A stretch of 63,596 nt of DNA from positions 1 through 63,596 of IMG/VR virus record IMGVR_UViG_3300005098_000067; one strand, given 5' to 3'. The position numbers and the translations under genes are program-made. This document shows positions 11,252 to 11,331 of the stretch, piece after piece (the first letter of the stretch is position 1; every line of letters starts with the position of its first letter). The notes beneath the pieces were generated by a model that was given only the letters and a program-made list of their open reading frames with translations, did no database searches and was not told the origin of the DNA. This DNA is from a virus. Taxonomy: Duplodnaviria > Caudoviricetes.

Positions 11252-11331
11252 TGACCTGCCTTGTCAACGCTCAGGCGGTCAACCCTGAGCGGATCCGGGC
11301 CGGCGTGAGCACGGCGGCCCGGATTTCGGCT
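11252..11331 (-). ncRNA. type II hammerhead ribozyme, U3-A8 core variant
   Basis: GCC-GAAA-[TCCGGGCCG..CGGCCCGGA]-TC-[CGCTCAGG GTTGACCG CCTGAGCG]-TTGACAA-GGC-AGGTCA. Loop TGACC can pair with the 3' GGTCA. Predicted AUC cleavage between 11292 and 11291. Confidence 0.85.

Follow-up and report, generated by a model that had tools for sequence, protein, structure and literature searches.

The stretch from 11331 to 11250 on the minus strand of the window (the entire 63,596-base IMG/VR record analysed here) is probably a functional type II hammerhead ribozyme that cuts a polycistronic RNA after C11292 and separates blocks of genes. It falls in a phage subfamily in which stem II is GCC/GGC and loop I forms a pseudoknot with the 3' tail, and its core carries a natural U3-A8 pair. 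This explanation is drawn from homology, fold, covariation in the family and placement, from which cleavage and its consequences are predicted. It is the second hammerhead in the window and is called copy 2 here. Copy 1, at 16920–16990 on the minus strand, is a canonical type II hammerhead with the core CUGAUGA and a 5 bp pseudoknot between loop I and tail (UAGCC/GGCUA), and its cut is expected after U16961, between 16961 and 16960. The interval between both predicted cuts (11292–16960, minus strand) is 5669 nt long and holds approximately 20 small orphan ORFs, tRNA-Thr(UGU) and two tRNA-like elements.

The completeness of the record is estimated at 58 %. GC skew is negative throughout, and the long ORFs are almost all on the minus strand. 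The products encoded include a tape-measure protein (25704–29753), a minor tail protein (21422–22873), an ATP-dependent DNA ligase (9818–10681), a DnaJ-domain protein, a Pol-beta-thumb protein and a queuine tRNA-ribosyltransferase-like protein of 608 aa (53051–54877, minus strand; PHROG 887, E 6e-34). Enzymes of the last type are used by some phages for 7-deazaguanine DNA modification. This gene content and the strand bias of the ORFs indicate that the window is a tailed-phage fragment transcribed from high to low coordinates. A megablast search of phage records with positions 9000–19000 gave no match, no relative of the DNA ligase protein was found in viral contigs, and the small proteins neighbouring copy 2 belong to no family in Pfam or PHROG.

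Anatomy and detection of the variant hammerhead

The match to a covariance model (R1, below) and the MFE fold place the whole of copy 2, a type II hammerhead with an open stem II, at 11250–11331 on the minus strand, on which all of the parts described here lie. Read from 11331 to 11250, it follows the order A-GCC-GAA-stem III-C17-stem I-UUGACAA-GGC-A-GGUCA. The 5' strand of stem II, GCC (11328–11330), has GGC at 11258–11260 as its partner in the sequence and the fold, and is followed by the core residues G12, A13 and A14 (11325–11327) and by a 32 nt stem III hairpin (11293–11324) of 10 contiguous pairs closed by A15.1 (11324) and U16.1 (11293). By hammerhead numbering, the cut is predicted between C17 (11292) and N1.1 (11291). 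Stem I (11268–11291) is a hairpin of 8 pairs with an 8 nt loop, GUUGACCG (11283–11276), and leads into the second part of the core, U3 U4 G5 A6 C7 A8 A9 (11261–11267), where in both the sequence and the cmsearch alignment UUGACAA replaces CUGAUGA. The 3' tail, GGUCA (11252–11256), is complementary to UGACC in loop I (11281–11277), giving a pseudoknot of 5 bp. This pseudoknot and all 21 stem pairs are intact.

The core departs from the consensus at positions 3, 7 and 8 only (C3 to U, U7 to C and G8 to A). At positions 3 and 8 (11267 and 11262) the letters are not the consensus C3-G8, and pairing is kept as U3-A8. Copy 2 retains the core that is invariant in the family, namely G12, A13, A14, the A15.1-U16.1 pair, G5, A6, A9 and a letter other than G at position 17; U4 (11266) is also present and C11292 is the H required at 17. 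The G12, A13 and A14 columns do not vary in an alignment of 32 canonical hammerheads. In the wider family alignment, the A15.1-U16.1 closing pair is found in 106 of 106 rows, the stem II pairs are CG or GC in 94–105 of 106 rows, and position 7 varies freely (T in 79, C in 21, A in 5 and G in 1), making C7 the second commonest letter.

A pattern combining the canonical core with the flanks shared by the window copies yielded 66 stretches from viral contigs, which contain 92 parsable hammerheads besides the two in the window. R1 was built from 32 of 70 distinct canonical hammerheads, selected only by similar stem length and with the window excluded. When R1 was run with filters off over both strands of the whole window, copy 1 scored 73.8 bits and copy 2 scored 46.3 bits (E 5.7e-10), while the third-best of the 48 matches listed reached 11.6 bits (E 0.42). 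With cmsearch, copy 2 aligned over model positions 1–71 of 71, including all 18 pairs. The Rfam model for this class, RF02276 (Hammerhead_II), gave copy 1 46.5 bits against a gathering score of 37 and, at the gathering threshold, reported copy 1 only; relaxing the threshold to E≤10 over the full record again recovered copy 1 and gave no match for copy 2. The six Rfam matches with E≤10 between 11100 and 11500 include no hammerhead family. A plus-strand match to 'P37 sRNA' covering 11252–11331 was rejected as a hairpin match (22.8 bits against a gathering score of 50).

Folded as a 91 nt RNA, copy 2 adopts exactly the three-way junction in both the MFE and the centroid structure, at −42.4 kcal/mol (z −3.1), and none of 200 shuffles folded as well. 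Stems III and I persist in the MFE and centroid structures of a 201 nt context, in which GGCU, further upstream, replaces GGC as the partner of the stem II AGCC. Nearest-neighbour folding leaves out the tertiary contacts that hold a 3 bp stem II, and the upstream pairing could slow the folding of copy 2 or could merely reflect an energy model that ignores such contacts. Judged from sequence and modelling, copy 2 is a real hammerhead and is very probably active. The initial annotation had described a second hammerhead with the topology of copy 1, and both the R1 score and the MFE three-way junction agree with it; copies 1 and 2 are type II hammerheads from one subfamily. The flanks, core letters and pseudoknot letters that it gave, the cut between 11292 and 11291 and the interval of about 5.7 kb (5669 nt) are correct by sequence, and its prediction that a consensus search would miss copy 2 holds for Rfam, where RF02276 finds copy 1 only.

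Family covariation and recurrence of the U3-A8 core

Searching the 66 seed loci with R1 gave 131 matches, 108 of them distinct, with up to nine or more per locus spaced a few hundred bases apart. The cores among the 108 were CTGATGA (87), CTGACGA (5), CCGATGA (4), CTGATGA+T (3) and CTGAAGA+T (3), together with single instances of CTGAAGA, CTGAATGA, TTGATGA, CCGACGA and CCGATGA+T, and one further copy was truncated. None of these 108 distinct matches from canonical-pattern loci has U3-A8. Six distinct hammerheads with intact stems (loci L149, L174, L121 and L140) have CCGAUGA, CCGACGA or CCGAUGA+U as the core, in which, provided that the alignment is not shifted by one position, C replaces the normally conserved U4.

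Covariation was examined in an alignment of 107 matches (106 distinct) in which canonical and variant loci are mixed. Standard pairs make up 97.3 % of cells compared to 63.0 % in shuffles, none of 500 of which reached 97.3 %, and sliding the 3' partners by 1–3 columns reduced pairing to 31–42 % of cells. Double changes are seen in 17 of the 19 pairs. The 3-8 pair is CG in 80, UA in 17, UG in 2 and other in 6 of the 105 rows with letters at both positions, counts that do not represent natural frequencies because the variant loci were fetched deliberately. Loop I and the tail also covary: the mean longest complement is 4.89 nt in native pairs and 3.34 nt in permuted pairs (200 permutations, sd 0.11, maximum 3.67), and complements of at least 5 nt are found in 68 % of native but 15 % of permuted pairs.

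Variant loci were obtained from viral contigs with a TTGANAA pattern carrying the same flanks. This recovered 72 stretches, and the 48 loci with plausible stems were passed to R1; the other 24 resembled chance matches inside AT-rich or coding sequence and were set aside. The 77 R1 matches represent 28 distinct sequences, 22 of which have U3-A8, not counting the window copy. Nine of the 22 are variants of one element found on approximately 40 contigs, and the remaining 13 have unrelated stems and matching pseudoknots. Four U3-A8 copies lie on a single contig (loci L229 and L253) and, in the group represented by L187, a U3-A8 copy lies approximately 500 nt from a canonical copy; megablast of an L187-type locus against phage records gave no match. 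A looser U3-A8 pattern found at least 119 stretches; among those listed, the window copy was the only credible one to pass a stem filter, the five others that passed having 3–4 pairs per stem.

Three further pattern scans covered the remaining letter combinations at positions 3 and 8, and a uniform filter was imposed (stems I and III with 5 or more contiguous pairs apiece, and a letter other than G at position 17). The distinct hammerheads passing this filter numbered at least 58 for C-G (a lower bound, obtained with a narrower pattern), 17 for U-A, 10 for C.A and 2 for U.G, with stems intact in both of the last two groups. Those that passed included none with a purine at 3 and none with a pyrimidine at 8 (none from 102 stretches, and no pyrimidine at 8 in two other scans). 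Hence, U-A is the commonest alternative to C-G, both single-step intermediates (C.A and U.G) occur naturally, and the recovery of pyrimidine-3/purine-8 combinations only indicates that the pair is constrained to these. In three pairs of near-identical loci (L210/L357, L226/L350 and L198/L393; 94–98 % identity over 516–658 aligned bases), A8 is shared and the ribozymes differ only in having U3 or C3, a hint that the switch can go by way of a C.A intermediate. The C3.A8 hammerheads and these near-alleles also suggest that the 3-8 pair may be under loose selection, or that some A8 copies may be weak.

It had been proposed that the swap in copy 2 is compensatory, and the 3-8 pair is indeed kept; the 10 C3.A8 and 2 U3.G8 hammerheads with intact stems make the requirement softer than that term implies. 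The variant is not new: it is already documented and is recurrent in phages. Przybilski and Hammann in 2007 reportedly tested exchanges of C3-G8 in vitro. The available text of Perreault et al. 2011 (PMC3088659) already contains the U3-A8 variant, to which the viral contigs add 22 more, and states that C3/G8 covary to U3/A8 in several natural hammerheads and that in vitro activity has been proven. U3-A8 is also found in hammerheads of Penelope-like elements (Cervera and de la Pena 2014, PMC4209133). The examples in both papers share the same pair-preserving change at 3 and 8 with copy 2, though those of the Penelope-like elements, as described in the available part of the second, are minimal eukaryotic type I motifs. 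The 22 other phage type II examples have GCC/GGC-AGG flanks, as copy 2 does. Copy 2 is distinct in sequence from the known U3-A8 hammerheads, and its phage has no close relative in the collections searched.

Direct evidence of conservation is absent for copy 2 itself, as no orthologue was found in a related phage among phage records, viral contigs and metagenomes. Using blastn, the ribozyme gave just one 40 nt match of chance level in phage records, to an ORF of a Mycobacterium phage, and a pattern with the loop and tail of copy 2 recovered one stretch from metagenomes, an unrelated canonical hammerhead. Copy 2 therefore stands as one more natural U3-A8 hammerhead and leaves the existing understanding of hammerhead catalysis unchanged. 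The Rfam model overlooks U3-A8 copies, so Rfam-based counts underestimate the number of phage hammerheads.

Placement, proposed role and alternatives

Copy 2 is found between two small minus-strand ORFs. The stop codon of the upstream ORF (11346–11555, minus strand; 69 aa, no family match) is 14 nt before the ribozyme. Downstream, a gap of 10 nt separates the end of the tail from a Shine-Dalgarno sequence, AAGGAGG (11240–11234), which together with an ATG (11227–11225) occupies 11225–11240 on the minus strand. This start codon, 22 nt past the 3' end of R1, opens an ORF of 80 aa (10985–11227, minus strand) that also has no family match. The Cys/His-rich end of the 69 aa product (C..C......C.H.H) suggests a small zinc-binding protein. 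Copy 1 starts 2 nt after the stop codon of the ORF at 16993–17460 and ends 13 nt before AAGGAGG (16906–16900), and the ATG (16892–16890) places the start codon 27 nt downstream.

The same arrangement is general in the family. When hammerheads with 80 nt of downstream sequence were compared with positions drawn at random from their own loci and strand, a Shine-Dalgarno sequence and a start codon within 40 nt downstream were found for 119 of 135 distinct hammerheads versus 144 of 690 random positions. A location just upstream of a ribosome-binding site in about nine of every ten family members supports a role in separating cistrons or making leaders in long transcripts. A promoter scan of 9500–18500 found one weak promoter-like site (9841–9814, minus strand) where 2.0 were expected, and a terminator scan of the same region found two terminator-like sites where 8.2 were expected, with 15217–15199 the only one on the minus strand; neither minus-strand count exceeds that in shuffles. 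Neither a sigma-70 promoter nor an intrinsic terminator is near either copy, and both were rejected as features of the ribozyme sites. The lack of any excess of promoters or terminators, and of either at the ribozymes, is consistent with a single long transcript.

We propose that copy 2 would be transcribed within a long minus-strand polycistronic phage RNA and that each ribozyme would act on the nascent transcript, with the RNA of copy 2 cutting itself after C11292. The RNA upstream of the cut would then have the stem III hairpin and a 2',3'-cyclic phosphate at its 3' end. The RNA downstream would start at a 5'-OH, and its stem I hairpin, core and pseudoknot would form a compact leader ahead of the Shine-Dalgarno sequence for the following gene. 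Copies 1 and 2 would jointly set the module of small genes and tRNA apart from its neighbours, which would probably let the separated blocks differ in stability or translation. RiboJ, an engineered insulator in which a hammerhead placed before a ribosome-binding site strips off the RNA context upstream and leaves a leader of defined structure, is a synthetic element that copy 2 may resemble in function.

Phage type II hammerheads (RF02276; PMC3088659, in the part available) have, like copy 2, an open 3 bp stem II, GAAA, an A15.1-U16.1 pair and a cut at H17, as well as an 8 bp stem I, the loop of which pairs with the tail that follows stem II; like the two copies in the window they are intergenic, occur more than once per genome and flank blocks of genes. 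Copy 2 differs from the usual members in having UUGACAA rather than CUGAUGA, a longer stem III (32 nt) and no detection by Rfam. In prophages, multiple hammerheads often flank genes or short blocks, which led to the suggestion that long transcripts are processed into mRNAs of operon or gene length (PMC3088659). A halovirus hammerhead described in the same paper lies 13 nt before a start codon, and a mapped transcript 5' end is no more than 3 nt from the cut. This HHphage of HF1/HF2, like copy 2, precedes a start codon by a few nt and heads a polycistronic block, although it is a structurally different variant with a mapped transcript whereas copy 2 is known from sequence alone (PMC3088659). 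The accessible text of a 2019 review (PMC6765202) repeats the processing idea, and regards the function of bacterial and phage hammerheads as unsettled and in need of more work.

It is possible that the cleavage rate of copy 2 is tuned differently. We consider it unlikely that copy 2 is a real hammerhead that is attenuated or conditional, the cut being slowed by the weaker U3-A8 pair, by C7, by the long stem III or by the competing GGCU, such that part of the transcript would stay uncut and the rate would set the ratio of joined to separated mRNA. The pairing of AGCC with the upstream GGCU in the 201 nt MFE and centroid structures would fit with this, as would the presence in the window of one canonical and one variant copy with a common transcript direction, and Perreault et al. 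2011 (PMC3088659) suggest in the text available that slower phage variants might be regulated. However, the same source cites U3-A8 as neutral or compensatory and not as deleterious, C7 is the second most frequent letter at position 7 (21 of 107 rows), and the four U3-A8 copies on the contig with loci L229 and L253 argue for ordinary function and not for a special slow site. That copy 2 is a decaying relic, catalytically dead and surviving as an intergenic hairpin, appears improbable. Two core letters that are normally conserved are altered, Rfam has no match for it, no orthologue was found that would demonstrate conservation, and the C3.A8 variants elsewhere show that the core can drift; but both changes preserve the pair exactly, and the 21 stem pairs and the 5 bp pseudoknot are intact. 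Moreover, the stem filter was passed by no hammerhead whose letter at 3 is a purine or whose letter at 8 is a pyrimidine, which is the pattern expected from selection for a Y3-R8 pair and not from free decay.

Hammerhead ends, a 5'-OH and a 2',3'-cyclic phosphate, fit the substrates of RtcB. The initial annotation had the end chemistry right, as in textbooks, and had raised from it the circularisation of the interval, which found no support. Cutting at copy 2 would leave GCC-GAAA-stem III-C>p as the 3' end of the interval, and cutting at copy 1 would leave stem I-core-GGC as its 5' end. These two ends could reassemble as a chimeric hammerhead with a canonical core, and its reverse reaction or a host RtcB-type ligase would then convert the 5669 nt RNA into a circular gene-and-tRNA mRNA; we regard this outcome as extremely improbable. 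The end chemistry suits RtcB and the GCC/GGC stem II is identical in both copies, making the chimeric junction formally possible, and natural hammerheads show approximately 10 % ligation at equilibrium in vitro (PMC3884650, available text). Against this, a mere 3 base pairs would join the ends of a 5.7 kb RNA, and the tRNA genes in the interval would be excised by RNase P and RNase Z. RtcB (PF01139) had no match in the record, which is 58 % complete, and Perreault et al. 2011 (PMC3088659) detected neither circles nor spliced RNA when they looked for such products from clustered phage hammerheads. If a circle did form, the U3-A8 core would be on the discarded side and would be relevant to the forward cut alone.

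tRNA-like features between the ribozymes

A tRNA-like gene at 12493–12567 (minus strand) matches the Rfam tRNA model at 40.4 bits (gathering score 29, permissive filters). The acceptor stem, D arm and T arm are good, and an enlarged anticodon loop, CCGCCUCC, is held between a 6 bp stem. ARAGORN reports this gene as tRNA-??? with a 4-base anticodon, gcct. As both U33 and purine 37, which tRNAs usually have, are missing, it may serve as a processing signal resembling a tRNA and not as a decoder.

A further tRNA-like match, at 14012–14131 (minus strand; 34.7 bits), precedes tRNA-Thr(UGU) by 3 nt. With UUCCAGG as the anticodon loop, its anticodon would be CCA (Trp), and the region of the D arm includes a 53 nt insertion; there is no ARAGORN call. 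At 16506–16596 (minus strand), ARAGORN reports a tRNA-??? with the 4-base anticodon gcag, for which there is no Rfam tRNA match at E≤0.5. The hairpin found in the terminator scan at 15217–15199 (minus strand), GGCGGGTTCGACTCCCGCC, resembles the T arm of a tRNA.
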